Counted from the stretch's first letter, positions 25-44,567 are shown. The stretch is 64,000 bases of DNA from Minisyncoccota bacterium (GCA_041659205.1 JBAZYS010000002.1:87806-151805), one strand, 5' to 3'. Notes: a model not told the origin generated them from the sequence alone. Numbers and translations are program-made.

Positions 25-312
25 ATGGGCACACTTTGGGAAAATGCTCTCTACAATGGTTATAAAATATATGGCGACGGAATAATAGAGGCTTCTCCAT
101 ACTTTATATCTCCGGGTGATATTAGGGTTCCTTTGCTTAATTGGACTTGGTCTATAAATGATTTTCAAATAGACATAACTGGCCCCAAAAAGAACGTGTT
201 TCCAGTACAAGTACAGCCAGGGGTGTCTGGAAGGTCTACAATAAAATTAAGCATTGAAAATATTTATAAAATTACGGGAGCCATTAGTAAGGAACTTGGT
301 GTAGAATTTTAA
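25..312 (+). CDS. hypothetical small protein (95 aa)
   Basis: ATG-initiated ORF directly upstream of the 318 gene. No recognisable motif. Confidence 0.3.
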   Translation: MGTLWENALYNGYKIYGDGIIEASPYFISPGDIRVPLLNWTWSINDFQIDITGPKKNVFPVQVQPGVSGRSTIKLSIENIYKITGAISKELGVEF

Positions 313-317
313 AATAA

Positions 318-1718
318 ATGAAAAAAATTTTATCATACATTTTAATACTCATTGGACTAATCGGACTGTTTAATCTGCCTGTTCGCGCAGAAGCAGCAGA
401 CCCAATGGGTTCTTGTAAAACTACTATATTTGGTGAAGTAAGAATTTTCCCTGACACACACCCAAACTGTACCGCCCGGGGAGGAGAGTGGAGTGAAACG
501 ACCCAAACATGTCCACCCCCTAAAGTATTAAGCACTACTAGCAACATTTGTGTTGACCCACCGCCAGCATCCGCAGAGCGTTGTTTTGTTAACGGGGTAC
601 AAAAGGAAGGGATATCCACAAAATCTGCTTGTGATGAAATAAATGGAATATGGGCGACCGTACCACCAACGCCAGATGGCCCCCGAGGGACTTGTATTGT
701 AGAAGGAGCTACTTTAAGCGGTTCATGGACAGAGGCAGCTTGTAGGCAACAGCCCAATTTTAAACAATGGTTACCCGAAGCCGCACCAAGAGGAACCTGT
801 ATAATAGGTTCTAGAACTGAACACGATTGGACGAAGGCTGCTTGTGACCTTAGTGGTGGCTCTTGGAGACCAAATCTTGCTGAAGACACAAAATATTATT
901 TTTTGTCTCCTCTGCCTTGTACTGGAACCCCTGAGAGCGGTTGCGTTGATGGAAAACTTAAATCTTTCGACCCTATTGGTGATAATAAATTAGGTGCCTA
1001 TTTAAACCTAATGATAAAGATATTCATCGGTATCTGTGCAGTCTTGGCGGTAATAATGATTGTTATGGGAGGCATTGAATACATGATGACTGAATTAGTC
1101 TCAGGCAAAGAAGCAGGAAGGGAGAGAATAAGAAATGCTTTACTTGGACTTCTTTTAGCTCTTGGTGCATACACTCTACTTAACACAATAAATCCAAATA
1201 TTCTAATAACTGATATACCACTACCAAACCAAGGAATAATAGTAACACTAGAGCCAGAACTTGAATCACCTCAGACAGCCGTTTTGACTGATGAGGGCGC
1301 CCCTTCTGGACCTACTCCTGGTTGTCCAGAAGGAATAGGAAGAACTGCGGGGGGTATATCTGTATGTAATAGTATTGTTGCAAAAGTTAATGATATGATT
1401 ACTGCTGCCAAAAATGCCAATCCTTCTTGTGTATTAACAGGAGGCGGATACAGATCACTCGCGAGACAAGTAGAACTAAGACAGAAAAATTGTCACGGTG
1501 ACACAACAAACAAAAATCCAAACCCTGCATGCAATCCTCCAACTGCACTTCCAGGAAACTCCAGACATCAACAAGGCCTCGCTATTGATTTTCAGAGTAG
1601 CGGACGCTTAATTGAAACAAGAGACAATGTTTGTTTTTTGTGGCTCTCGGCCCATGCAGGACCCACGTTAAAGAACCTGCCTTCGGAACCTTGGCATTGG
1701 TCAATTGATGGAAATTAA
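318..1718 (+). CDS. secreted Cys-rich protein with a central two-helix hydrophobic segment (VirB2/TrbC-pilin-like) and a C-terminal peptidase M15 (VanY-type D-Ala-D-Ala carboxypeptidase) domain
   Basis: N-terminal signal peptide (MKKILSYILILIGLIGLF...VRAEA). About 200 aa with many Cys. Two adjacent hydrophobic helices (IFIGICAVLAVIMIVMGG / LLGLLLALGAYTLL). C-terminal SRHQQGLAIDF matches the M15 SxHxxGxAxD zinc-peptidase motif. Confidence 0.55.
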   Translation: MKKILSYILILIGLIGLFNLPVRAEAADPMGSCKTTIFGEVRIFPDTHPNCTARGGEWSETTQTCPPPKVLSTTSNICVDPPPASAERCFVNGVQKEGISTKSACDEINGIWATVPPTPDGPRGTCIVEGATLSGSWTEAACRQQPNFKQWLPEAAPRGTCIIGSRTEHDWTKAACDLSGGSWRPNLAEDTKYYFLSPLPCTGTPESGCVDGKLKSFDPIGDNKLGAYLNLMIKIFIGICAVLAVIMIVMGGIEYMMTELVSGKEAGRERIRNALLGLLLALGAYTLLNTINPNILITDIPLPNQGIIVTLEPELESPQTAVLTDEGAPSGPTPGCPEGIGRTAGGISVCNSIVAKVNDMITAAKNANPSCVLTGGGYRSLARQVELRQKNCHGDTTNKNPNPACNPPTALPGNSRHQQGLAIDFQSSGRLIETRDNVCFLWLSAHAGPTLKNLPSEPWHWSIDGN

Positions 1719-1730
1719 TAATAATATTTT

Positions 1731-3113
1731 ATGTCAAAAAGAAACTTTATACTTTTAATAATCGTCTTAGTCATCCTCACTCTTGGGGTGTTGGGTTTTC
1801 TGTACCTTCAGCAACCAACTAGCCCGGGAGGGGATAGTACTGGCACAAACTTTGGTTCAAAATTTAATCCCTTTGGAACGAGTGACACAAATAAACCACC
1901 CACTCCACCTCCTCCTGTAGATGTTTCTGGATATGAACCAGCTCCTTCGACTCCAGATGCATTAGTAAAATTAAGAAAAATTTCTAGTATGCCCATAGCT
2001 GGTTTTACGGTATTTTCCAAAGAAAGATTAAAAGATGTAGTTGCCCCGGCAGTAACTCCACTAACAGATACTCCCGCATCCGCAGACGCCCCTGCAGTAA
2101 TTTCTGCCCCGAAGACACCAGCAAAGACAAATACAAAAATAACTAAGCCTACACCACCACTTACAGAATTCATGCCTGCTTTGAGATATGTAGCTCGAGC
2201 TGATGGAAACATTTATCAAACTTTTGCCGACAGGGTTCTTGAACAAAAGTTTTCTGTCACAATAATTCCTAAAATATATGAGGCTTTCTTCGGCAACAAT
2301 GGAAGCTCTGTAATTATGAGATATTTAAAGGGTGATGTTAAAACAGTTGCCACTTTTATCGGAACTCTTCCAAAGGAAATATTGGGCGCAGACACAACGG
2401 TCAGTAATGAAGTAAAGGGAACATTTTTGCCTGATAACATAAAAGACATAAGTCTGCTTCCTGACGGATCTAGCGCTTTTTACTTATTTAATGTCGGAGA
2501 CAATACAATAGGCACTACTCTCAACTTCGTCACAAATAAAAAGGCCCAAATTTTTGACTCATCTTTCAACGAATGGTTATCAGTTTTTTCAAATACCAAA
2601 ACGATTACTTTAACTACTAAACCTTCTTCGGAAGTCCTTGGATATATGTATACATTAAATACTGGTACTAAAAATTTTACTAAAACTCTCGGCGGCATAA
2701 ATGGACTCACGACACTCGCTAGTCCCAGTGGAAACTTGGTTCTTTTTAGTGATAATAATTTATTTCTCAATGTTTATCACACAGACACTAAAACAACAGA
2801 CCCACTCGGGGTGAAAACTCTACCAGAAAAATGTGTCTGGAATAAAACAAGTGACACTGCTTATTGCGGAGTCCCTAAATATATTGCAAGTGGTGGATAT
2901 CCAGACAGCTGGTACCAGGGAGAAGTTTCTTTCTCTGACCAAATCTGGAAAATAGATATCAAAACAGGAAATGCAACAATCATCGCAGATCCAGTAGCTG
3001 TACAGGGGGGAGAAGACACAGACAGCATAAAACTTGCATTAGATGACGGAGAAAATTACTTATTCTTTGTGAACAAAAAAGATTCCTACCTCTGGGAACT
3101 TGGGCTTAAATAA
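1731..3113 (+). CDS. membrane-anchored Pro/Thr-rich hypothetical protein
   Basis: N-terminal TM helix followed by a PPTPPPP-rich linker and a ~350 aa extracytoplasmic domain. No recognisable catalytic motif. Confidence 0.4.
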   Translation: MSKRNFILLIIVLVILTLGVLGFLYLQQPTSPGGDSTGTNFGSKFNPFGTSDTNKPPTPPPPVDVSGYEPAPSTPDALVKLRKISSMPIAGFTVFSKERLKDVVAPAVTPLTDTPASADAPAVISAPKTPAKTNTKITKPTPPLTEFMPALRYVARADGNIYQTFADRVLEQKFSVTIIPKIYEAFFGNNGSSVIMRYLKGDVKTVATFIGTLPKEILGADTTVSNEVKGTFLPDNIKDISLLPDGSSAFYLFNVGDNTIGTTLNFVTNKKAQIFDSSFNEWLSVFSNTKTITLTTKPSSEVLGYMYTLNTGTKNFTKTLGGINGLTTLASPSGNLVLFSDNNLFLNVYHTDTKTTDPLGVKTLPEKCVWNKTSDTAYCGVPKYIASGGYPDSWYQGEVSFSDQIWKIDIKTGNATIIADPVAVQGGEDTDSIKLALDDGENYLFFVNKKDSYLWELGLK

Positions 3114-12374: not shown

Positions 12375-12470
12375 AAATATAGTCTTTTAAAAAGCATTGC
12401 GACCAGCTACCGAGCGAGTATAGCAAATTTTCAGCAGAAAATTATGTGCGGTTTTTAAAAGACTATATTT
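12375..12470 (+). repeat. GC-rich miniature repeat family 2, copy 1, enclosed by a 19-bp perfect inverted repeat
   Basis: Core 12394..12451 (GCATTGCGACCAGCTACCGAGCGAGTATAGCAAATTTTCAGCAGAAAATTATGTGCGG) shares AATTTTTCAGCAGAAAAATAT and a GC-rich hairpin with the copies at 54148 and 62386. Flanks AAATATAGTCTTTTAAAAA and TTTTTAAAAGACTATATTT are perfect inverted repeats; the right one overlaps the ruvC stop. Confidence 0.7.
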
Positions 12471-12958
12471 TTATAGTTTTGCCCTTTTAAATGTGCAAAA
12501 GCTGTAATAGCGATGGCAATAGCATCCAATTCATCGTCTGACTTTTTAGAATTATCTATATCCACTAATATTTTTACCATTTTTATTATTTGTTCTTTAT
12601 TTGCTTTTCCATAACCCGTGGTAGCTATTTTTATTTGAGGGGGGGAGGCTTCAAATATTTTTAATCCAGCATTTGTGGCTTCATAAATTACTACCCCGCG
12701 TGCTTCGGCGACGTGCATGACTGTTTTATGATTAGTAGTTAAAAATAAAGTTTCTATCGAAAGAACATCAGGTTTGTATTTTTTTATTATTTTTTTTACT
12801 TCTTCACCGATTAAAAGTAATCGTTCATTAAATTCTAATTTGGCAGAAGTTTTAAAGCATTCTGAAAAAATTACAGCTTCTTTTTTATCACCTTGTTTTT
12901 TCTCTAAGACCGCGACACCGAGGCGTTCATATCCTGGATCTATTCCTAAAATTATCAT
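12455..12958 (-). CDS. ruvC: crossover junction endodeoxyribonuclease RuvC
   Basis: MIILGIDPGYERLGVAVLE with RNase-H-like fold catalytic Asp/Glu. 167 aa. Confidence 0.9.
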   Translation of the reverse strand: MIILGIDPGYERLGVAVLEKKQGDKKEAVIFSECFKTSAKLEFNERLLLIGEEVKKIIKKYKPDVLSIETLFLTTNHKTVMHVAEARGVVIYEATNAGLKIFEASPPQIKIATTGYGKANKEQIIKMVKILVDIDNSKKSDDELDAIAIAITAFAHLKGQNYKNIVF

Positions 12959-13125
12959 AACTAAAGTTTAACATAATATGTGGATATTTTAATTGACTTT
13001 AGAAATATTAGTGATATATTAAACGTAATTTCCTCTCTGGATGTTTTTCTTTGAGAGGGTGTTCCTTTCAAAGATTCTGGAGATCCACCACAACCAGGGC
13101 CTAAAAGCCCTAAGCAGGAGGATTC

Positions 13126-13275
13126 ATGAAGAAATTCACCGCGCTCATCCCGATCAGCTCGTTCCTGACCCCGGTCATGACGCTGACCTTCGAGCTCCAG
13201 CCCAACGCCCACGGCCAAAGCGGCGCCGTCGGCACGATCTCCATCGGCCACCCCGTCACCCGTAACGGCACTTGA
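13126..13275 (+). CDS. small ORF (49 aa) inside a GC-rich mini-island, preceded by a perfect Shine-Dalgarno
   Basis: AGGAGG at 13116..13121, 4 nt before the ATG. Product MKKFTALIPISSFLTPVMTLTFELQPNAHGQSGAVGTISIGHPVTRNGT. It is antisense to the ruvB-yebC-ruvC transcription direction. Confidence 0.3.
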   Translation: MKKFTALIPISSFLTPVMTLTFELQPNAHGQSGAVGTISIGHPVTRNGT

Positions 13276-13440
13276 ATTAGGGAAAGCATCACGTTGGTGC
13301 TTTCCCAAAAACTCAAACGCCTCCGAAGGAACGGGTTGTTGAAGAAAGGGGAGGCCTCTCACGAGGCCTCCCCCGACTATCAAAAGTCATTAAGATTTTT
13401 TATTTTAAAAAAACACTGGTGGCTTTTTTAATTTGTCTTT

Positions 13441-13977
13441 TTATTCAGCATTAGTATAAACATCCTGCACATCATCATTCTCCTCAATGTCTTCTATGAG
13501 TTTATCTAAAAGTTCTAAGTCTTCATCAGAAAGAGGAATGGAACTATTTGGAACCCAAATAAGTCCTTCTGGGCTTTTTTGTTTAGTAAATGCCCAAGAC
13601 GCAGAACCGATAGCTCCTAAAGTAAAACCATTTTTTGTAAGGATATGTTTTATATCTTGAGCTGTTCTGTTTTTACTATCCGTTAGAGTTTCAATAATAA
13701 TTCCTGCTCCACCCGGGCCATGTGCTTCATAAGTAATGGCATCCATATGGGCAGATGGTTCGCTAGCTTTTTTAACAGCTCTTTCTATAACATCCCCAGA
13801 CATATTTACCTTTTTTGCTTTTTCTATTGCAGCACGAAGTCCAGGAGATTCCTTGCCACCCGAGAGTTTCGCTTCGACAGAAATATAGCGTACAAGCTTA
13901 GAAAAGATTTTGCTTTTCTTCGAGTCAGTAATTGCTTTCTTGTGTTTTATTTGTGCCCATTTATTATGTCCTGACAT
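13441..13977 (-). CDS. yebC: YebC/PmpR-family DNA-binding regulator (short form)
   Basis: N-terminus MSGHNKWAQIKHKKA is the family hallmark. Located between ruvB and ruvC as in many bacteria. Confidence 0.85.
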   Translation of the reverse strand: MSGHNKWAQIKHKKAITDSKKSKIFSKLVRYISVEAKLSGGKESPGLRAAIEKAKKVNMSGDVIERAVKKASEPSAHMDAITYEAHGPGGAGIIIETLTDSKNRTAQDIKHILTKNGFTLGAIGSASWAFTKQKSPEGLIWVPNSSIPLSDEDLELLDKLIEDIEENDDVQDVYTNAE

Positions 13978-13982
13978 ATTTT

Positions 13983-15035
13983 TTATATTAATTTATTTTG
14001 CAAATTTTCTGGTAAGTCGAAATCTAGATGTTCATATGCTTTGCTTGTTGCTACTCTTCCACGCGCTGTACGCTCAAGGAGACCAAGCTGTATTAAATAT
14101 GGCTCTATTACTTCTTCTACGGTAGCTTCTTCTTCGGACATTGCAGCACCAATAGTTTTTAGCCCTACGGGGCCACCCTTGAATTTTTCAATTAATATTT
14201 CTAAGAATTTTCTATCGGAAGAGTTTAACCCAATATCATCAATTGCGAGCATATTTAAGGCTTCTTTTACTGTTTTTTTATCTAAATCTTTTTTGTGTAC
14301 TTGGGCAAAGTCTCGACAACGTTTCAAAAAGTAGTTTGCAGTACGTGGAGTGAAGCGACTTCGTTCCGCAATTTCTTTTAATGCTTCTTCTTCCAGTTTT
14401 ATTTTTAAAAGTTTACTGGACCTTTCGATAATTTTTGCAATTTCTTCATTGGAATAAAATTCTAAACGGAAAACTCCTCCCGAAAAACGAGAACGAAGAG
14501 GGGAGGAAACCATCGCGACACGAGTGGTGGCTGCAATTAATGTGAAGGGAGGTAAGTCGAGTTGAATGGTTCGTGCGGATGGGCCCTTGCCGATAATAAT
14601 ATCTAAAACGCCAGACTCCATCGCAGGGTAGAGAATTTCCTCAACCATTTTATTAAGTCGATGAATTTCATCTATAAAAAGAATATCTCCAGCAGCCAAG
14701 TTTGTGAGAATAGAAGCGAGGTCACCAACTTTTTCTATCGCTGGGCCAGAAGTAATTTTCATTTGTCTGCCAGTTTCTTTTGCAATCAAATGCGCGAGAG
14801 TTGTTTTCCCTAATCCTGGTGGTCCATAGAAAAGAATATGTTCCGGGATGTGTCCGCGCTCTTCGGCCGCTCGCAGTAAGACATTTAGGTTATCTTTTAT
14901 GTGTTTTTGACCGATATATTCGTCCCAGTGGGTAGGGCGGAGAGTTTGATCAAGAAAAGAGTCATCAATACCCCCTTTTTGTTCGATGCTTGAATTGACT
15001 ATTTCTTTAGCTTTTTTACTTGACATTGGTTTCAT
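13983..15035 (-). CDS. ruvB: Holliday junction branch migration helicase RuvB
   Basis: AAA+ Walker A GPPGLGKTTLA, sensor motifs and winged-helix C-terminus. Confidence 0.95.
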   Translation of the reverse strand: MKPMSSKKAKEIVNSSIEQKGGIDDSFLDQTLRPTHWDEYIGQKHIKDNLNVLLRAAEERGHIPEHILFYGPPGLGKTTLAHLIAKETGRQMKITSGPAIEKVGDLASILTNLAAGDILFIDEIHRLNKMVEEILYPAMESGVLDIIIGKGPSARTIQLDLPPFTLIAATTRVAMVSSPLRSRFSGGVFRLEFYSNEEIAKIIERSSKLLKIKLEEEALKEIAERSRFTPRTANYFLKRCRDFAQVHKKDLDKKTVKEALNMLAIDDIGLNSSDRKFLEILIEKFKGGPVGLKTIGAAMSEEEATVEEVIEPYLIQLGLLERTARGRVATSKAYEHLDFDLPENLQNKLI

Positions 15036-15424: not shown

Positions 15425-17122
15425 TTACTCTTCATTTAAATCAACGACACTTTGTACTTCTTCGAAAGAAGTAATCCCATTTAGCATTTTTACGAGGCCA
15501 TCTTGGCGCATTGAAAGTATGCCTTGAGCACTCGCTACTTTTTTGATTTCTCTTTCGCTTGGATTTTCTGGCATTATTTTTTCTATAGACTCGTCAGTTT
15601 TTATTGCTTCAAAGATACCAATTCTGCCTTTAAAGCCTGTCATGTTACATTTTTCACAACCAACTGCTGAAAAAAGCTTAAAGGGCACATCTGGATTTAT
15701 ATTATAATTTGAAAGACTTTTTCCTTCAGCTTTAATACTAGCTAAAACACCTCTCATGGTTGCTTCTTCTTCTTTACTTGGAATTTTTTCTTTTTTACAA
15801 AATTGGCAAAGCTTACGGACCAAACGTTGAGCAATAGAAAGTGACAATGCGGAGACTAAAATTTTAGGATTTACACCAAGGTCAATCAGGCGGGGAATAA
15901 CTCCGGCTGCATTGTTTGTATGGAGGGTAGAGAAAACTATGTGACCCGTAAGTGCTGATTGCACCGCAATCTCGGCTGTTTCTTTGTCGCGGATTTCTCC
16001 GACCATTACCACATCTGGGTCCTGACGAAGAGCTGAACGCAAGCCCTCGACGAAAGTGTATCCTTTCTTCATGTCAGTTTGGGTTTGAGTGATACCTACT
16101 AAATGATATTCAACAGGGTCCTCAATCGTTATAATTTTTATTTCTGGGGAATATATTTTTTTCAAAAAGGCATAAAGAGTAGTGGTTTTTCCTGATCCAG
16201 TCGGACCAGTGACGAGAATTAATCCATTTGGTTTTGATATTTCTTGTTGGATAACCGAAAAAAGAAAAGGTTCAATTCCTATTTCTTCAAGTGGCACTTG
16301 GATTGATTTTGGGTCCAAGATTCTCATGACGATTGATTCACCATAAGATCCAGGAATAAGTGAACTACGAATACTTATTTCGTCTTTTCCTTCTGTGATA
16401 CTAAAACGTCCATCCTGTGCTATTTTGGATGTTAATTTCATTCCTGAAAGAAGTTTTATTCTTGAATTTAACAAATGATAAACATCTGAACCGAAAAATA
16501 AAACATCAATCAAAATTCCGTCCAAACGAAGTCTGAGCCTGCCTCTATCTTCCTCAGGTTCAATATGAATATCAGAAGCTTTAATAGCGATAGCCCCAGC
16601 AAGAATTATTTCTAACATCTTTGAAATTTTATGAATTTTATTTTCTTTCAAGGCTTCCGTAATCATTATTTCAATGTCTTTCATTTTGTGAATCTTCTGA
16701 GCTGTTTCTCTTAAAACTTCTCCAGAAATATCTAATCCTCCAATGGTTGAACTTTCTGCCATTGAAATTTCTTTATATCTTTCCCAGACCTTGTTTATAC
16801 TAGCGGAAGATGCCATATAAAAAGTTGGTACGAGGCTGAGCCTTTCCATGTCATCTTTTAGTCTTTTTATCAAATCGTCAGAAGGGGAACGCAAGGCAAT
16901 AAAAATATTTTTTCCGAAAAGTTTAAAAGGGGCAGCATTTAATTCTCTGCAGTCCTTTTCTGAAATTGCACGAAGAGCCTCATTGTCTATCCCTAAACGA
17001 TAGAGATCAATATAAGGGAGACCATATTTTGATTCTGCCAGGGTGGCTACCAGCTGCTCCTCTTCTTGTTTATGCAAATCTTCGAGTTGTCTATTTTGTT
17101 TTTCTTCATCAAATAAAGGCAT
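15425..17122 (-). CDS. pilB: type IV pilus assembly / type II secretion ATPase (PilB/GspE family)
   Basis: GspE N-terminal domain, Walker A LVTGPTGSGKTTTLYA, C-terminal tetracysteine CEKC... Confidence 0.85.
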   Translation of the reverse strand: MPLFDEEKQNRQLEDLHKQEEEQLVATLAESKYGLPYIDLYRLGIDNEALRAISEKDCRELNAAPFKLFGKNIFIALRSPSDDLIKRLKDDMERLSLVPTFYMASSASINKVWERYKEISMAESSTIGGLDISGEVLRETAQKIHKMKDIEIMITEALKENKIHKISKMLEIILAGAIAIKASDIHIEPEEDRGRLRLRLDGILIDVLFFGSDVYHLLNSRIKLLSGMKLTSKIAQDGRFSITEGKDEISIRSSLIPGSYGESIVMRILDPKSIQVPLEEIGIEPFLFSVIQQEISKPNGLILVTGPTGSGKTTTLYAFLKKIYSPEIKIITIEDPVEYHLVGITQTQTDMKKGYTFVEGLRSALRQDPDVVMVGEIRDKETAEIAVQSALTGHIVFSTLHTNNAAGVIPRLIDLGVNPKILVSALSLSIAQRLVRKLCQFCKKEKIPSKEEEATMRGVLASIKAEGKSLSNYNINPDVPFKLFSAVGCEKCNMTGFKGRIGIFEAIKTDESIEKIMPENPSEREIKKVASAQGILSMRQDGLVKMLNGITSFEEVQSVVDLNEE

Positions 17123-36092: not shown

Positions 36093-37301
36093 TTATTCGT
36101 ACCTTAAGGCATCGATCGGATTAAGCATTCCTGCTCGACGTGCGGGATAGTATCCAAAAATAATTCCAATACCCGCGGATACACCGAAAGCAAGTAAAAC
36201 AGAAGAGAGCGTCACTGAAGTAGCGAGTATTCCTGTCGAAGTCACGATAAAGGAGATGAGCCAGCCCAAAACAATTCCAAAAAACCCACCGATAAATGTT
36301 AGCATGATTGCTTCAGAAAGAAATTGAATATTTATATCCCCCCTCTTTGCACCGATTGCTTTTCGAAGTCCGATTTCTTTTGTGCGTTCTGTTACAGTAG
36401 TGAGCATCATATTCATAATGCCTATTCCTCCAACTAAGAGTGAGATGGAAGCAATAGCCGCGAGGAAAAGAGTGAAAGTGTCTATCACCGTAGTAAGTGT
36501 TCCTAAAATGTCTTCTTGGGAAATTATTGAAAAATCTGCTTCCGCAATGTGATGTTTATCTAGGAGGGTATTGGTAGCTAATTCTTTGACCAAGGTCATA
36601 TCGTTTTTATCAGCGACAGATACAGCCATCATTGAAAGATAATCCATTCCAGAGAGAATTTTTTGCATTGTAGAAAGGGGAACAAAAATCATATTATCAG
36701 GTCCAGAAAAACCAACTCCACCCTTCGAGACGAGTACCCCAACAACGTTAAAGTTAACCTTATTAATACGAATAGTTTTACCGACGGGGTCAGCATCTTG
36801 GAATAAGTCAGTAGCGACAGTTGCTCCGAGGACTGCTTGTCTACCTATACTTCTATCGTTCGCATCAGAAATAAAGCTTCCGTTTGCAAGGGAAAGGTTG
36901 TGCACATTTAAGTAATCAGAAACTACTCCCGTGATGGTGGTATTAGTATTGTTTCCAGTTGCGACAACTTGAAATCTACTTGAAACTTCTGGAGAAACAG
37001 CAGTGACACCATCAATAGCTTTTATAACAGCGATGTCCTCATTCTTTAATGTTTGAGCTGCTCCACGACCTGAGGAAACTATTCCTCGGCCTGGCTGAAC
37101 GATTCCTGGGATAATGGTCAGAAGATTTGAACCGAGACCTTCAATGCTGGATTGAATAGATTGTTTTGCTCCATTACCAATGGAAACCATTGCAATAACA
37201 GAAGCAATACCGATGACGATACCGAGCATCGTTAAAAGAGAGCGTGCTTTGTTTGCAGTGAGGGAACTATATGTTTCATTTAAGATATCTTTTATTTTCA
37301 T
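36093..37301 (-). CDS. ABC transporter permease, FtsX/MacB family (4 TM + large extracytoplasmic domain)
   Basis: N-terminal TM, ~220-aa periplasmic domain, C-terminal three TM helices with FtsX-like signature. Confidence 0.85.
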   Translation of the reverse strand: MKIKDILNETYSSLTANKARSLLTMLGIVIGIASVIAMVSIGNGAKQSIQSSIEGLGSNLLTIIPGIVQPGRGIVSSGRGAAQTLKNEDIAVIKAIDGVTAVSPEVSSRFQVVATGNNTNTTITGVVSDYLNVHNLSLANGSFISDANDRSIGRQAVLGATVATDLFQDADPVGKTIRINKVNFNVVGVLVSKGGVGFSGPDNMIFVPLSTMQKILSGMDYLSMMAVSVADKNDMTLVKELATNTLLDKHHIAEADFSIISQEDILGTLTTVIDTFTLFLAAIASISLLVGGIGIMNMMLTTVTERTKEIGLRKAIGAKRGDINIQFLSEAIMLTFIGGFFGIVLGWLISFIVTSTGILATSVTLSSVLLAFGVSAGIGIIFGYYPARRAGMLNPIDALRYE

Positions 37302-38002
37302 AGATTTATAATTCTTTTGGTGTGGGTGTTTTGGTCCAAGATCAGTTTTCCGTCTTTGATAAAAAGAATTCTATCTGCATGTTCTGCTATTTCTTGTTCA
37401 TGAGTAATGACGATTATTGTGCGCCCTAATTCTTTATTTAATTTTTGAAAAGTTCCCATCACGATTTCTCCAGTTTTTGAATCCAGGTTTCCCGTAGGTT
37501 CATCCGCTAAGATAAGAGATGGATTGTTCACGAGCGCGCGAGCAATTGCCACGCGCTGAATTTGACCACCAGAGATTTGATTGGAGCGGTGTAAGAAGTG
37601 ACCTTCATCTAGACCTGCAGAGAGCAGGGCTGCTTTTGCTCTTTCTTCTCTCTCAGCACCGTGTATACCTGCGTAAACTAAAGGTAACATTACATTACGC
37701 AAGACAGTAGTTCTTGGTAGGAGATTAAATGCTTGGAAAACGAAACCGATTTTATCTCTACGGATATCTGCCAACTGGTCATCAGATAAAGAAGAAACGT
37801 CTTTATCGTCGAGGAAATATGTTCCATTTGTTGGACTATCGAGAGCACCCAAGATATGCATTAAGGTAGATTTCCCACTTCCTGAAGGTCCCATGATAGC
37901 GACGAATTCTCCGTCAGTAATTGTAAAAGAAACATCATTTAATGCTTGAAATTCTACATCACCAGTCTTGTATGTTTTTGTAATATTTTTAATTTCAATC
38001 AT
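37298..38002 (-). CDS. ABC transporter ATP-binding protein (MacB/LolD-like)
   Basis: Walker A GPSGSGKST, signature ISGGQIQRVAIARAL, Walker B ILADEPTGNLD. Start set to the internal ATG (MIEIKNITKTYK), not the 38071 extension. Confidence 0.85.
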   Translation of the reverse strand: MIEIKNITKTYKTGDVEFQALNDVSFTITDGEFVAIMGPSGSGKSTLMHILGALDSPTNGTYFLDDKDVSSLSDDQLADIRRDKIGFVFQAFNLLPRTTVLRNVMLPLVYAGIHGAEREERAKAALLSAGLDEGHFLHRSNQISGGQIQRVAIARALVNNPSLILADEPTGNLDSKTGEIVMGTFQKLNKELGRTIIVITHEQEIAEHADRILFIKDGKLILDQNTHTKRIINL

Positions 38003-41294: not shown

Positions 41295-44200
41295 TTATTG
41301 TAATGTAGTAGTCGTAGTTTTTTTGCCAGATGGTTGATCAATGACAGTCGTAGTTTTTTTACGGAAAGATTGATCATAGGTGTACTTAGTTAAATATACA
41401 AGTATAAGTACAAGAAGGAGAAGAAGGAGCCATCCGAATAAGTTTGTAGGGAAGAAACCAGCTCCGAAGACATTTGCGCCAAGGAAGTTAAGATTTGTTC
41501 CATCATTCCAAACTTGGGCTGAGACATTTGCACTTACTGATTGAGGCTGACCAGAAGGATCAATATAACTCAAAGTTGCAGGGAAGTTCAAATTTGTTCC
41601 AGCTTTTATGTTATCACGTACTCGTACTCTTACAGTGACTACTCCTTTACCATTTGCTCGAAGAGTTCCGAGGTTGAAGTATAGGGTATTACCAGAGATT
41701 GAGGGATTGCTTGGGTTTGAGAATAGATAATCTACTTCAAGAGGAAGATTCATTTGAAGAGTAAGGTTCGTGATTGAAGCATTCCCGATGTTTTGATAAC
41801 TCACTGTGTAATTTATTTCATCACCCGGTTTTGGCATGGTGTTATCAATCGTAGGAACGATTGGTTGGTTGCGGTCAACAGAAGAGGTGATTAAGACGAG
41901 GGAAGATGGGATAATAGGAGTTCTATTTGTTTGACCACCGACAGTTATTGTCTCAGTATCACTTGCAGAACCGAAAGCATTACTACAAGTTATTTCGTAA
42001 GTCTTACTTGAAGTTAAACTTCCAGTATAGAAGGAGCCTGGACCAATACTTTTTACTCCGGCCCAGCCGACAGATCCGCCTGACGCATTACATGAGGTTG
42101 CATTTGTGGTAATCCAGCGAACAGTTGCAGAACCATTGTAAGCTAGATTTGTTTGATCTGAATAAACTACTACAGTTGGCTGATTACTTATGATTTGTTG
42201 ATTATCTACATTAACAGTTGTAGTAGCATTTGCTTGCTGGCCACTACTGTTTGTACAAGTAATACCGAAGTTTGTTGCATTGGTTAAGTTACCTGTGTAG
42301 AAACTTCCAGAAGTACTTCTGTTTCCAGACCATCCGTTAGTACCATTATTGGCGGAACATGATGTCGCATTTGTAGAATTCCAAATTATTAATGAAGTTC
42401 CATTGTAAGGGACAGAAACTGGATTTGCATACATGGTAACAGTTGGGTATTGAGTTTGGTTGTTTACATATACTGAAGTAGAAGCATTTGCTTGCTGACC
42501 ACTACTATTTGTACAAACGATATCAAAGTTTGTTGTATAGGTTAAGTTTCCAGTATAGAAACTACCGGAAGTACTTTTACTTCCTGCCCATCCGTTTAAT
42601 CCATTTGTACCAGTACAGTAACTTGCGTTTGTAGAATTCCAAGTAACTAAAGAAGTTCCATTATAAGAAATAGAAGCTGGACTTGCGTACATGGTAACAG
42701 TTGGGTTTTGATTTTGATTATTTACATAAACAGTGGCATTGGCACTTGCTGATTGACCAGTGTTGTTTACGCAATTAATAACATATGTAGTTGTACCTTG
42801 TGGTACTACCACTCCTGATCCACTAATTGAGTTACTTCCTGTCCAATAAGCATTACATGAGGTTGCATTTTGGGAAGTCCAAGTAAGAGTAGAGTTACTA
42901 CCTTGCTGAATGCTTGCTGGGTTGGCAGTTAGTTGTACTGTTGGAGCTTGAGTTTGGTTTACGTAAACAGTTGCATTAGCACTTCCTTGCTGGCCAGCAC
43001 TGTTTACACAGTTAATAACATAAGTAGTTGTACCTTGTGGTACTACCACTCCTGATCCAGTAGTGTTTGTATTTGTAGTCCAGTAAGCATTACATGAGGT
43101 TGCATTTTGGGAAGTCCAAGTAAGAGTAGAGTTACTACCTTGCTGAATATTTGTTGGATTAGCAGTTAGTTGAACTGTTGGAGCTTGAGGATTGTAATTG
43201 AAACTAGCATTAACCGTACAATTTGAAGTAATTGCACCTGTGGTAAATGTGTTTCCATTTAAATATCCATTACAACCAGAAACATTATTTATTGAGTATC
43301 CTTGATTTGCAGTTATGTAAAAGGTTGCAGTATTTCCAGAATTAATTTGCTGAGAAGTAGGAGCGATTGATCCACCTGTTCCAGCATTTGTGGAGACGGT
43401 GAAAGTAGTAGGGGCGTTTGGCGCACAGATTGAACCGTTCCAAGAAGAACCATTTGCACATGACGAAGTAGCTGATTTTGTATCTAGAACCGTAGATCCA
43501 TTTCTAAGATTATATATTGTATATGGGTATCCAACATATACTAAAAGAGGGTATGTGTTATTTGCAGCAGTAGAAAGAGTCGCACCTGTGTTTCCATCTA
43601 TCAACATTGGATTTGTAGTATTTGCTGTCGTCCAAGTAGCGCCGGTAACAGTACAAGTGCTTGCACCGGAAGCGATGATACAGCTTGAAGGGGAAATAGT
43701 TAAATTTCCAGTTGCTGGGTTAGGAGGATTTTGTACAAAACTAGCATATACAGTACAAGCAGAATATATCGCGCCAGTATTGTATGTAGTAGCAGTAGTA
43801 ATGTTGTTCAACTGACTACCATTACAACCATAAACTGACCCAGTGTATCCAGAATTTGGAGTTACTGTGAAGTTTGTGGTGTTTCCTGAAACGACTTGCT
43901 GATTTGGGGGAGTAATGTTTCCACCTACGCCTGATCCTGTGGAGGTAACGGTGTAGGTAGAAGGGGCGTTAGGTGTAAAACTAGCATTTACAGTACAGAC
44001 AGCATTTATTGCACCAGTAGTGTATGTCGTAGGAGCTGTAATATTATTTAATGCAATACCATTACATCCAGAAACTGAACCAGTGTATCCGTAGTTTGGA
44101 GTTACTGTGAAGCTTGTAGTACTTCCTGCATTAACGTTCTGAGTTCCTAGGGGAGAGATAGTTCCGTTGTTGCCTGCGTTTGAAGTGACTGCGTAGGTAG

Positions 44201-44567
44201 TAGCCTGACACGTAGGAGTCATAATGCTTCTGATATTTAATGGATTGGTTCCGTAAGCATTTACAATTACCATTCTGAAATAGTAAACAGTGTTTTCGGA
44301 TAGTCCAGTAACAAGCTGTTCAACATGAGATAGAGAATTAAAATGTTGTACGGCTGTATGTATTCCTAATCCTTGTTCGACATTATTATAAGTAGTGTCG
44401 TATTCGAAATGGACATCGAATGGCGGAGTGCCGCTTGTGATGTCACCAGTGAAATAAGCACTATTACAAGTGAGTGCAGATGCGGGAGTCGCAAATGCAA
44501 AAGACCCGAAGAGTGTTACCACACTCAACATTAATCCGACCGACAATAATTTTATTTTGTTATTCAT
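41295..44567 (-). CDS. giant cell-surface protein (1090 aa): signal peptide, tandem Ig/PKD-like Thr/Ser/Asn-rich domains, C-terminal TM anchor
   Basis: Signal peptide. At least two ~95-aa near-identical repeats (APTVQLTANP..IQQGSNSTLTWTSQNATSCNAYWT...TTYVINCVN) and 2-3 repeats of PTVTMYA.P.S..YNGTSL..WNSTNA. C-terminal LLLLLLVLILVYL. Near-identical DNA repeats are present. Confidence 0.7.
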   Translation of the reverse strand: MNNKIKLLSVGLMLSVVTLFGSFAFATPASALTCNSAYFTGDITSGTPPFDVHFEYDTTYNNVEQGLGIHTAVQHFNSLSHVEQLVTGLSENTVYYFRMVIVNAYGTNPLNIRSIMTPTCQATTYAVTSNAGNNGTISPLGTQNVNAGSTTSFTVTPNYGYTGSVSGCNGIALNNITAPTTYTTGAINAVCTVNASFTPNAPSTYTVTSTGSGVGGNITPPNQQVVSGNTTNFTVTPNSGYTGSVYGCNGSQLNNITTATTYNTGAIYSACTVYASFVQNPPNPATGNLTISPSSCIIASGASTCTVTGATWTTANTTNPMLIDGNTGATLSTAANNTYPLLVYVGYPYTIYNLRNGSTVLDTKSATSSCANGSSWNGSICAPNAPTTFTVSTNAGTGGSIAPTSQQINSGNTATFYITANQGYSINNVSGCNGYLNGNTFTTGAITSNCTVNASFNYNPQAPTVQLTANPTNIQQGSNSTLTWTSQNATSCNAYWTTNTNTTGSGVVVPQGTTTYVINCVNSAGQQGSANATVYVNQTQAPTVQLTANPASIQQGSNSTLTWTSQNATSCNAYWTGSNSISGSGVVVPQGTTTYVINCVNNTGQSASANATVYVNNQNQNPTVTMYASPASISYNGTSLVTWNSTNASYCTGTNGLNGWAGSKSTSGSFYTGNLTYTTNFDIVCTNSSGQQANASTSVYVNNQTQYPTVTMYANPVSVPYNGTSLIIWNSTNATSCSANNGTNGWSGNRSTSGSFYTGNLTNATNFGITCTNSSGQQANATTTVNVDNQQIISNQPTVVVYSDQTNLAYNGSATVRWITTNATSCNASGGSVGWAGVKSIGPGSFYTGSLTSSKTYEITCSNAFGSASDTETITVGGQTNRTPIIPSSLVLITSSVDRNQPIVPTIDNTMPKPGDEINYTVSYQNIGNASITNLTLQMNLPLEVDYLFSNPSNPSISGNTLYFNLGTLRANGKGVVTVRVRVRDNIKAGTNLNFPATLSYIDPSGQPQSVSANVSAQVWNDGTNLNFLGANVFGAGFFPTNLFGWLLLLLLVLILVYLTKYTYDQSFRKKTTTVIDQPSGKKTTTTTLQ

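Follow-up and report, generated by a model that had tools for sequence, protein, structure and literature searches.

In a 64,000-nucleotide stretch of the genome of a Minisyncoccota bacterium (GCA_041659205.1, JBAZYS010000002.1:87806-151805, henceforth referred to as the window), the gene at positions 318..1718 on the forward strand very probably encodes the pilin of a type IV secretion system (T4SS) cluster, and this pilin carries at its C-terminal end an active-looking peptidase of the LAS family. Comparison with related genomes shows that the enzyme and the Cys-repeat domain at the other end of the protein are exchanged rapidly and independently of each other, as cassettes flanking a pilin core that is itself conserved; the enzyme cassette begins right after the motif TINPxLL. 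The original prediction, made from the sequence alone, had described a composite of a Cys-rich domain, a pilin-like hydrophobic hairpin and an M15 peptidase; its open reading frame (ORF) of 466 amino acids (aa) was exact and the three-part architecture was confirmed. NCBI holds an identical protein (P0001), named 'MAG: M15 family metallopeptidase [Candidatus Paceibacterota bacterium]' and encoded on a 163-kb contig. The parts of the gene are as follows.

318..1718 (+): the whole gene, a pilin-VanY fusion of 466 aa plus stop with an ATG start; by position the orthologue of the cluster's VirB2-like pilin
318..392 (+): Sec-type signal peptide, aa 1-25 (MKKILSYILILIGLIGLFNLPVRAE), with KK in the n-region, a hydrophobic core and likely cleavage around VRA/EA
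393..893 (+): variable, predicted extracellular N-domain, aa 26-192, with Cys repeats and one CPPP...C loop (aa 65-78)
894..1217 (+): pilin core module, aa 193-300, comprising the pre-helix YxLLxPLPC...GC...FDP, helix 1, a basic loop, helix 2 and the TINPxLL boundary
1218..1352 (+): linker rich in Pro, Glu and Thr, aa 301-345, its first part flexible
1353..1715 (+): VanY-type LAS (M15) zinc peptidase domain, aa 346-466 (PF02557)

For the C-terminal domain Pfam returned VanY (PF02557) with 41.2 bits (gathering cutoff 25; E = 1.8e-10; aa 350-447), and the domain keeps all LAS catalytic residues, in agreement with the M15 assignment that had been drawn from the motif SRHQQGLAIDF, found at aa 415-425. 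The family was thus correctly named and the extent was not: instead of ~150 aa, the domain covers ~120 aa (346-466) and follows a linker of ~45 aa. Its key residues are R379 (in GGYRS), Q384, H417 and D424 (in SRHQQGLAID), and E457 and H460 (in EPWHW), so that the zinc-ligand pattern H-x6-D ... H, the catalytic Glu (E-x-x-H) and the substrate Arg are all present, and the H417/D424 motif aligns with the SxHxxGxAxD of solved VanY carboxypeptidases. Across 79 VanY-bearing homologues R379, H417, D424, E457 and H460 are invariant, and so are the cysteines at 336, 350, 392, 405 and 439. The first of these, C336, lies in the linker, which is conserved along with the peptidase domain at C336 and from G339 onward. 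The NCBIfam models for LdcB, VanY and VanXY gave weak matches far below their equivalog cutoffs, and we therefore treat the protein as a member of the VanY/LAS family and not as a named VanY or LdcB orthologue. Sequence matches in the PDB were to VanY/LdcB D-Ala-D-Ala carboxypeptidases (E = 1.4e-4). The AlphaFold2 (AF2) model, with a predicted local distance difference test score (pLDDT) of 96-98 for aa 320-466, has the LAS fold in this part; VanXYc was the top Foldseek match (E = 2e-4, probability 1.00) and, for the full model, the sole significant one in the PDB. We predict from these features a catalytically intact VanY/LAS zinc peptidase acting on the stem peptides of peptidoglycan (PG).

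By hydropathy the protein has three hydrophobic segments (aa 1-27, ~224-262 and ~273-292), and the hydrophobic strings pointed out earlier, IFIGICAVLAVIMIVMGG, IEYMMTELVSGKEAGRERIRN and ALLGLLLALGAYTLL, are found at aa 235-287. The two helices of the pilin core were modelled at aa 224-257 and 261-291 with pLDDT ~90; the hairpin loop is short and basic, with an invariant K264 and Lys or Arg at 268, 270 and 272 (K264, R268, R270 and R272 in this protein). The T4SS_pilin family (PF18895) was detected at E < 1e-3 in 79 of 81 proteins occupying the same slot (80 loci, described below, and the query; best 2.4e-14) and in 38 of 41 non-VanY relatives (best 5.9e-11), and TrbC/VirB2 (PF04956) at the same threshold in 15 of the 81 (best 1.1e-6). 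As an example, the syntenic orthologue P0022 reached 35.9 bits with PF18895, above the cutoff of 26.6, and matched PF04956 at E = 6.4e-3. The query itself also gave a weak match (E = 6e-4) to NF045849, the Mbov_0395 pilin-like conjugal transfer protein of mycoplasma integrative and conjugative elements.

This hairpin module is the most conserved part of the protein, being 50-80% identical in all 120 matches listed in the first protein search, of which 79 share VanY and most have an unrelated N-domain. A search with the module alone retrieved stand-alone proteins of 111-188 aa, some of them named 'pilin' by NCBI, that are 58-68% identical over the whole module and stop 3-10 residues past TINPxLL, precisely where the linker starts in the fusion protein. 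Two such bare pilins, P0124 (147 aa) and P0131 (151 aa), fill the identical slot between two flanking genes that we call up328 and down460, and because bare pilins fill that slot we regard the fusion gene as orthologous by position to the T4SS pilin, extended at its two ends. The orthologue matches to PF18895 and PF04956, the bare pilins and the nearby VirB4 gene all disfavour a generic membrane anchor. At the family level the hairpin does not look like a plain transmembrane (TM) anchor lacking TrbC similarity, and the C-terminus does not fall below the M15 threshold. A hidden Markov model (HMM) that we built for the module scored the query at 147 bits and detected no second pilin module in the 64-kb window or in the 20-kb syntenic loci L002 and L003; one weak match (18 bits), to a polytopic membrane ORF at 36096-37370, was discarded as a product of hydrophobic bias.

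Taking one genome per species (GTDB), 264 relatives were found, and we compared the best 80 loci (L010-L089), which come from 80 assemblies of Nomurabacteria, Paceibacterota or Minisyncoccia. Synteny is strong among these 80: up328 was present in 79, VirB4 in 75, down460 in 75, jag in 70 and dnaA in 59, where the contig reaches. The slot proteins themselves range from 156 to 690 aa. Sixty-three of the 80 loci have a C-terminal extension of at least 148 aa, 12 have one of 49-107 aa, and in only five, one of them cut by the contig end, is the extension shorter than 40 aa, leaving a bare pilin. The fusion had at first been considered unusual; it is instead the rule in this clade, with the enzyme as an exchangeable cassette.

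The extensions span at least nine families of PG enzymes. Pfam assigned VanY to 14 of the 81 slot proteins (query included), NlpC/P60 to 10, Peptidase_M15_4 to six, SLT_2 to five, YkuD to four, Amidase_5 to three, Extensin-like_C to two, and Amidase_2 and SLT_3 to one each; P0108 (NlpC/P60), P0103 (YkuD) and P0079 (SLT_2) illustrate how different enzymes are fused to the same hairpin in the same slot. Beyond these assignments, an eight-member cluster of C-terminal parts matched SLT_3/lysozyme-like families at weak scores and shares an ES...GLFQIN motif. Another cluster, of ten members (L016, L018, L019, L025, L034, L039, L063, L067, L073 and L076), had no Pfam match and displays the pattern GGTEFW.HGG...SHxxGxxTIDL...EGxHWH in its last ~150-170 aa. 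The pattern, with its H-x6-D...HWH arrangement, recalls LAS zinc peptidases. We call this cluster LAS-like only tentatively, its hhalign probability against VanY being 18.7%, and it may be an undescribed LAS subfamily.

The turnover of these cassettes is fast. Enzyme class shows no phylogenetic signal: it was the same as that of the nearest VirB4 neighbour in only 5 of 69 loci, and sharing was 0-10% in each bin of VirB4 identity. The clearest exchange is between L075 (VanY) and L083 (YkuD), whose VirB4 proteins are 99.8% identical. Their nucleotide (nt) sequences show 93% identity from the beginning of the locus across virB4, up328, the signal peptide, the N-domain and the module, to ~19 nt past the module, a boundary that coincides with the start of the linker segment; the enzyme parts are then unrelated, and 94% nt identity resumes ~15 nt after the stop. 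L010 (SLT_3-like) and L015 (NlpC/P60) have VirB4 proteins 99.2% identical and, within the slot gene, only the module in common. The closest relative of the window's genome, L022, gives the same picture. Its VirB4 fragment is 98% identical, DnaA 96%, YidC 93%, Jag 88%, down460 76% and up328 68%, and its slot protein shares the signal peptide and a module 63% identical, has an N-domain without similarity to ours and carries SLT_2 in place of VanY. The part preceding the module is also variable in length, with a median of 90 aa and more than 100 aa in 38 of 80 loci. Repeats like those of the query's N-domain occur with SLT_2, NlpC/P60 and YkuD partners, and on that account N-domain and enzyme cassettes assort independently. 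No partner or immunity gene co-varying with the enzyme was detected at the locus, either across the 80 loci or in the VanY/YkuD swap.

The N-terminal cassette of the query consists of four two-Cys repeats of ~35 aa (aa 29-63, 85-120, 121-156 and 156-192 in the repeat alignment) with the pattern C-x2-4-G-x10-12-C-x3-6-G-x-W. The protein has 19 cysteines in total, of which 12 are in the first ~215 aa (positions 33, 51, 65, 78, 89, 105, 126, 142, 161, 176, 201 and 209), one is in helix 1 (240) and six are C-terminal. The count of at least 14 given originally for the ~200-aa N-terminal part was therefore too high, and of the 12 only 10 belong to the N-domain proper, C201 and C209 being part of the conserved pilin core. 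Disulfide bonding of the paired cysteines is plausible, because Candidate Phyla Radiation (CPR) genomes are enriched in MdbA-like disulfide oxidoreductases (PMC6744442). The AF2 model of the N-domain is beta-rich, with pLDDT ~80 at aa 120-220 and ~50 at aa 26-120. It had no Pfam match and no fold match (Foldseek of the full model against the PDB). An exhaustive phmmer search of 1.84e9 cluster representatives retrieved just three other proteins, distant large repeat proteins matched in 7-13 stretches, whose Pfam matches were repeat or low-complexity artefacts except for the InlB B-repeats of one of them, P0291 (2509 aa). As a side observation, a 1090-aa protein encoded in the window at 41295-44567 (-), probably a large surface protein, has DUF11 and a divergent InlB B-repeat.

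The GC content of the N-domain coding region (0.475) lies at the 98th percentile of 500-nt windows, with a genome-like GC at third codon positions (GC3) of 0.305. A foreign origin of the cassette, considered on the basis of composition, was rejected given that this GC3 matches the rest of the genome. The antisense 201-aa ORF at 284-889 (-), which overlaps the same region, is a shadow ORF and not a gene, attributable to the locally high, amino-acid-driven GC. The signal peptide that precedes the N-domain is kept among slot proteins (consensus MKKxxxYILILIxLxGxF; 78% identical to that of L022) and contains a helix at residues 2-18 in the AF2 model; its cleavage site is putative. With the signal peptide cleaved, two membrane helices and a basic loop between them, the positive-inside rule would place both the N-domain and the peptidase outside the cell.

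The genes flanking the slot within the window are the following.

25..312 (+): last part of up328, the cluster gene on the upstream side (328 aa in full, with a signal peptide and without a Pfam match)
1731..3113 (+): downstream cluster gene down460, with a TM helix at aa 3-26, a disordered Pro-rich linker at aa 31-77 and a seven-bladed beta-propeller at aa ~145-458

The stop of up328 is 5 nt before the start of the pilin gene and down460 starts 12 nt past its stop, and gaps of this size indicate an operon. The Logan contig L001 extends the window ~1.5 kb upstream; it contains the full 328-aa ORF (up328, L001 797-1783), and, ahead of it, the last 246 aa of a VirB4 ATPase (P-loop_TraG, 63 bits), which places VirB4 two genes upstream of the slot gene and outside the window. 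The order in homologue loci is two large proteins without Pfam matches, two small proteins, PrgI (VirB3-like, 34.8 bits), TraC-like/TrsD, VirB4, up328, slot and down460 (~450 aa), followed by convergent jag, yidC, (yidD) and rnpA and then by divergent dnaA, dnaN, PBP1 and a class I tRNA synthetase. The downstream order in the window is the same, with the PBP1-type synthase ~7 kb from the slot gene. This matches the dnaA-proximal, MPF-FATA-like T4SS described across Patescibacteria (Quinonero-Coronel et al. 2025, PMC12102498). In Southlakia epibionticum epibiotic growth requires the counterpart of this T4SS, together with its pilin genes (Wang et al. 2023, PMC10633639; PMC12857230). No other T4SS genes were seen in the remaining 60 kb of the window, where the large ORFs encode PBP1, a TyrRS/TrpRS-type synthetase, a PilB-like ATPase, PolA, UvrABC, an HlyD-like protein, SulP and the DUF11 surface protein. 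The PilB-like protein (T2SSE/MshEN assembly ATPase, 378 bits, 15425-17122 (-)) is followed by small-to-medium ORFs on the same strand (12455-15035 (-)). This is probably a type IV pilus cluster, and hence a second surface-filament system ~14 kb from the T4SS pilin.

Both neighbours of the slot have features of their own. The protein up328 is a fast-evolving exported member of the T4SS cluster, with 35-68% identity between genomes in which VirB4 keeps 83-94%; it was considered as a cognate immunity or chaperone gene and rejected, as it does not co-vary with the enzyme (93% nt identity across the VanY/YkuD swap). The original prediction had described down460 as membrane-anchored and Pro-rich, which it is, and it carries in addition the beta-propeller (AF2 pLDDT 81, predicted template modelling score 0.72; Foldseek matches to WD40/TolB-type propellers at E ~1e-9 to 1e-10). 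It has more than 1,100 homologues and belongs to no Pfam family, and about a dozen of the top 120 homologues carry PG_binding_1 (PF01471). It may be a clade-specific, wall-interacting component of the T4SS. Among L010-L089, VirB4 reaches 99.8% aa identity and is mostly 90-96% identical, and the nt identity of those regions is only 84-93%, which indicates strong purifying selection on the ATPase, beside hypervariable exported neighbours. Small accessory genes were found just upstream of prgI, namely a GIY-YIG gene, a 23S_rRNA_IVP/bAvd-like four-helix protein (three loci) and a BrnT/CopG toxin-antitoxin pair (L003 5620-5874; L005 5482-5850; L006 5490-5852; L009 3573-3932; L008 3380-3962), and the site looks like an insertion hot spot. 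The bAvd-like matches raise the subject of diversity-generating retroelements; no reverse transcriptase was seen in the 20-kb loci.

Taken together, we think it rather probable that the pilin of this chromosomal, origin-proximal T4SS, in an ultrasmall CPR bacterium of the Paceibacteria, serves to tether a PG enzyme that acts at the machine itself or at a site of cell contact. After Sec export and removal of the signal peptide, the two helices would sit in the membrane as a hairpin, with the basic loop in the cytoplasm and both termini outside. The mature N-terminus would display the disulfide-stabilised Cys-repeat domain, and the C-terminus would bear, on its flexible linker of ~45 aa, the VanY/LAS peptidase that cuts stem peptides of PG. 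If the hairpin polymerised as VirB2 does, both termini would lie on the surface of the filament. The enzyme would then be placed along the filament or at its end, and otherwise in the membrane pool, and in this way the T4SS would hold a PG-active enzyme where the machine crosses or contacts the cell wall. Polymerisation into a pilus, the specificity of the enzyme and the wall that serves as its substrate are all things that we infer. The original prediction had offered two guesses, wall remodelling at the pilus or secretion site and a host-wall effector, and both survive as readings of this mechanism.

Some observations weigh against the pilin assignment or against a role in opening walls. In the 466-aa protein itself PF18895 scored only 19.3 bits, below its cutoff (E = 1.2e-3), with an alignment (aa 232-290) that nevertheless extends over profile positions 12-70 of 71. 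A profile of the module retrieved no pilin from all PDB chain sequences, the best match being the unrelated MacB at E = 7.4, and hhalign of the module alignment with an Agrobacterium-type VirB2 (from an annotated pTi record) gave a non-significant probability of 1.9%. By Foldseek the hairpin matched only generic helical hairpins, such as those of ATP synthase c and NDH subunits. Enzymes of the VanY/LdcB type are typically carboxypeptidases that trim stem peptides and do not open the wall. The bare-pilin genomes indicate that the enzyme is dispensable for the machine as such. An extension of ~20 kDa at each end could sterically block a VirB2-like helical filament, and the protein may instead be a minor subunit or serve only as an anchor in the membrane. 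Further weak VirB2-profile matches elsewhere in comparable genomes are given in Table S3 of PMC12102498, on account of which other pilin paralogues may exist, and the literature records no pilus for any T4SS of Patescibacteria (PMC12857230).

The simplest alternative is an ordinary housekeeping D,D- or L,D-carboxypeptidase that has a two-helix anchor and lies next to T4SS genes near the origin by chance. The plain NCBI name, the sub-threshold PF18895 score of the query and the PBP1-type synthase nearby would fit it. Yet up328 and down460 flank the slot in 75-79 of 80 genomes, the hairpin is more conserved than the enzyme, and elsewhere the same position is taken by a bare pilin or by this hairpin joined to unrelated enzymes, with a lytic transglycosylase replacing the peptidase even in the closest relative, L022. 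Synteny and cassette swaps effectively exclude this alternative, to which we give very little credence. It is also conceivable, if improbable, that the module is an export or targeting carrier and that the enzyme, the N-domain or both are cleaved off near TINPxLL, freeing a soluble peptidase and a short pilin. VirB2/TrbC pilins such as RP4 TrbC and Ti VirB2 do undergo C-terminal processing and cyclisation, the bare pilins end 3-10 residues past TINPxLL at what is here the linker start, the linker is flexible with a pLDDT of 57 at aa 301-310, and the steric objection to pilus assembly would disappear. This pro-protein model is, on the other hand, purely inferential; no protease gene, TraF-like or other, was seen in the conserved cluster, and no conserved cleavage motif was identified beyond TINPxLL.

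A more serious contender, which we still consider somewhat unlikely, keeps the tethered enzyme and turns it on the cell's own wall. As a VirB1 analogue, the hairpin would hold the PG enzyme at the assembly site and remodel the wall for passage of the T4SS channel or pilus. Local wall remodelling of this kind is carried out by PrgK, TraG (pIP501), CwlT and TcpG in monoderm conjugation systems, and monoderm T4SSs need membrane-anchored PG hydrolases. VirB1 homologues are missing from most VirB2-bearing genomes of Patescibacteria, for which substitute enzymes have been suggested (PMC12102498). SLT and NlpC/P60-CHAP-like domains, the classical activities of VirB1, occur among the slot enzymes, down460 has PG_binding_1 in some lineages, and the missing immunity-like gene is what one would expect of a spatially restricted self enzyme. 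What fits poorly is the turnover of enzyme classes, even at 99.8% VirB4 identity, since a housekeeping factor faces a conserved self substrate. The Cys-repeat head, itself variable, is exchanged on its own, neither VanY-type carboxypeptidases nor YkuD transpeptidases punch holes, and in 5 of 80 genomes (one cut by the contig end) the pilin is bare and the cluster contains no further hydrolase.

We therefore favour an enzyme that acts, where the two cells meet, on the wall of the partner or host or on both walls; the host wall as main target is quite possible, if somewhat short of an even chance. A variable external target is preferred over a housekeeping one because of the cassette exchange without a co-varying partner gene, because enzyme chemistry turns over fast and independently of phylogeny while the head varies independently, because the two extracellular neighbours diverge faster than VirB4, and because non-lytic activities (carboxypeptidase, L,D-transpeptidase) and bare-pilin genomes occur. 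Extending this, we tentatively suggest that the T4SS pilin of Paceibacteria may be a polymorphic scaffold for display and delivery, with a polymerising VirB2-like core, a Cys-repeat head that might bind the target and a PG-cleaving warhead that would open or remodel the host wall, the cassettes being recombined at module edges and tracking the chemistry of that wall. If this were true, it would represent a new class of polymorphic effector system and give a first functional clue to the essential T4SS of Patescibacteria.

The T4SS of Patescibacteria, its proximity to dnaA and its VirB2-like pilins are already published (PMC10633639, PMC12102498, PMC12857230). No other T4SS has been reported to be essential for the growth of its bearer; the system lacks a relaxase and, in many cases, a coupling protein, and yet its monoderm bearers have VirB2-like pilins (PMC10633639, PMC12102498, PMC12857230). 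In the literature searched we found no description of fusions between T4SS pilins and PG enzymes, of their prevalence in the clade or of cassette exchange, though an earlier account is still possible. That in a large clade of Paceibacteria the pilin gene routinely carries a PG enzyme, swapped between near-identical genomes, links the machine to the processing of cell walls and might explain why VirB1 seems to be lacking in most of these genomes. The predictions that follow concern the specificity of the enzyme for the self or the host wall, a pilus decorated with domains, and a correspondence of cassette type with host type. There is also a consequence for annotation, as such proteins are now named 'M15 metallopeptidase' or 'D-alanyl-D-alanine carboxypeptidase', or else 'pilin', never both.

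Among known systems the nearest are the VirB2-like pilins of Patescibacteria (PF18895; PMC10633639, PMC12102498), with which the protein shares the family (at family level), the signal peptide, the two hydrophobic helices with a basic loop, and the setting beside VirB4, PrgI and TrsD near dnaA, with stand-alone pilins ~65% identical in the slot. The published pilins are short and often come in arrays of 2-11 genes (Saccharimonadia, Microgenomatia), whereas here a single slot gene has a Cys-repeat domain of ~170 aa at the N-terminus and ~165 aa of linker and peptidase at the C-terminus. One 'VirB2' bearing NlpC/P60 (PF00877) is listed, without comment, in Table S3 of PMC12102498. Classical VirB2/TrbC pilins (PF04956; Agrobacterium VirB2, RP4 TrbC) have the same two-helix hairpin and are likewise encoded beside VirB3/VirB4, but there is no significant direct similarity, the bearer is here a monoderm and the pilin has large globular extensions. 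We know of no classical VirB2 pilin with extensions of that kind.

The VirB1-like hydrolases of monoderms (PrgK of pCF10, TraG of pIP501, CwlT of ICEBs1, TcpG) are also membrane-tethered PG enzymes of T4SS clusters with the catalytic domain outside, as the topology proposed here would have it. Slot variants share their activities, SLT and NlpC/P60-CHAP (background in PMC12102498). The differences are that the anchor is a pilin hairpin and not a single N-terminal TM helix, that the enzyme is exchangeable and missing in some genomes, and that the 466-aa protein has VanY instead of an SLT, muramidase or CHAP/NlpC-P60 domain. Towards the VanY, LdcB and VanXY peptidases of the LAS family (M15B) the likeness consists in an HMM score above the cutoff, the zinc ligands, the catalytic Glu and Arg, and the fold; identity to the solved members in structural alignments is ~16-18%, and the extra invariant Cys pairs and the pilin fusion set our protein apart.

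The X-T4SS antibacterial effectors (X-Tfes) of Xanthomonadales also combine a T4SS with varied PG-degrading domains (NlpC/P60, lysozyme-like) directed against another bacterium's wall; these effectors are substrates in their own right that start out in the cytoplasm, VirD4 recognises them by a C-terminal XVIPCD, and every one is accompanied by a cognate immunity gene (PMC6536674). Here, in contrast, the enzyme would be exported by Sec and is covalently fused to the pilin, and the cluster has neither VirD4 nor a co-varying immunity gene. In polymorphic toxins (CdiA-CT after VENN, Rhs, LXG) a conserved delivery part is followed by a C-terminal domain that is replaced after a short motif, which is mirrored here by the wholesale C-terminal replacement after TINPxLL, with the boundary ~19 nt past the module. 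Unlike in those toxins, down460 follows directly downstream with no adjacent immunity gene, no orphan cassettes are present at the locus, the payloads are all cell-wall enzymes and not nucleases or pore formers, and the N-terminal cassette varies too. Finally, the modular type IV pilins, such as PilB of Streptococcus sanguinis (PMC8179133), display a grafted functional module on a filament, as proposed here. They belong to another filament superfamily, with a single N-terminal helix and processing by a prepilin peptidase, and their grafts are adhesive where those of the present slot are PG enzymes, so that the idea of the modular pilin would be extended from type IV pili to the pilins of T4SSs.

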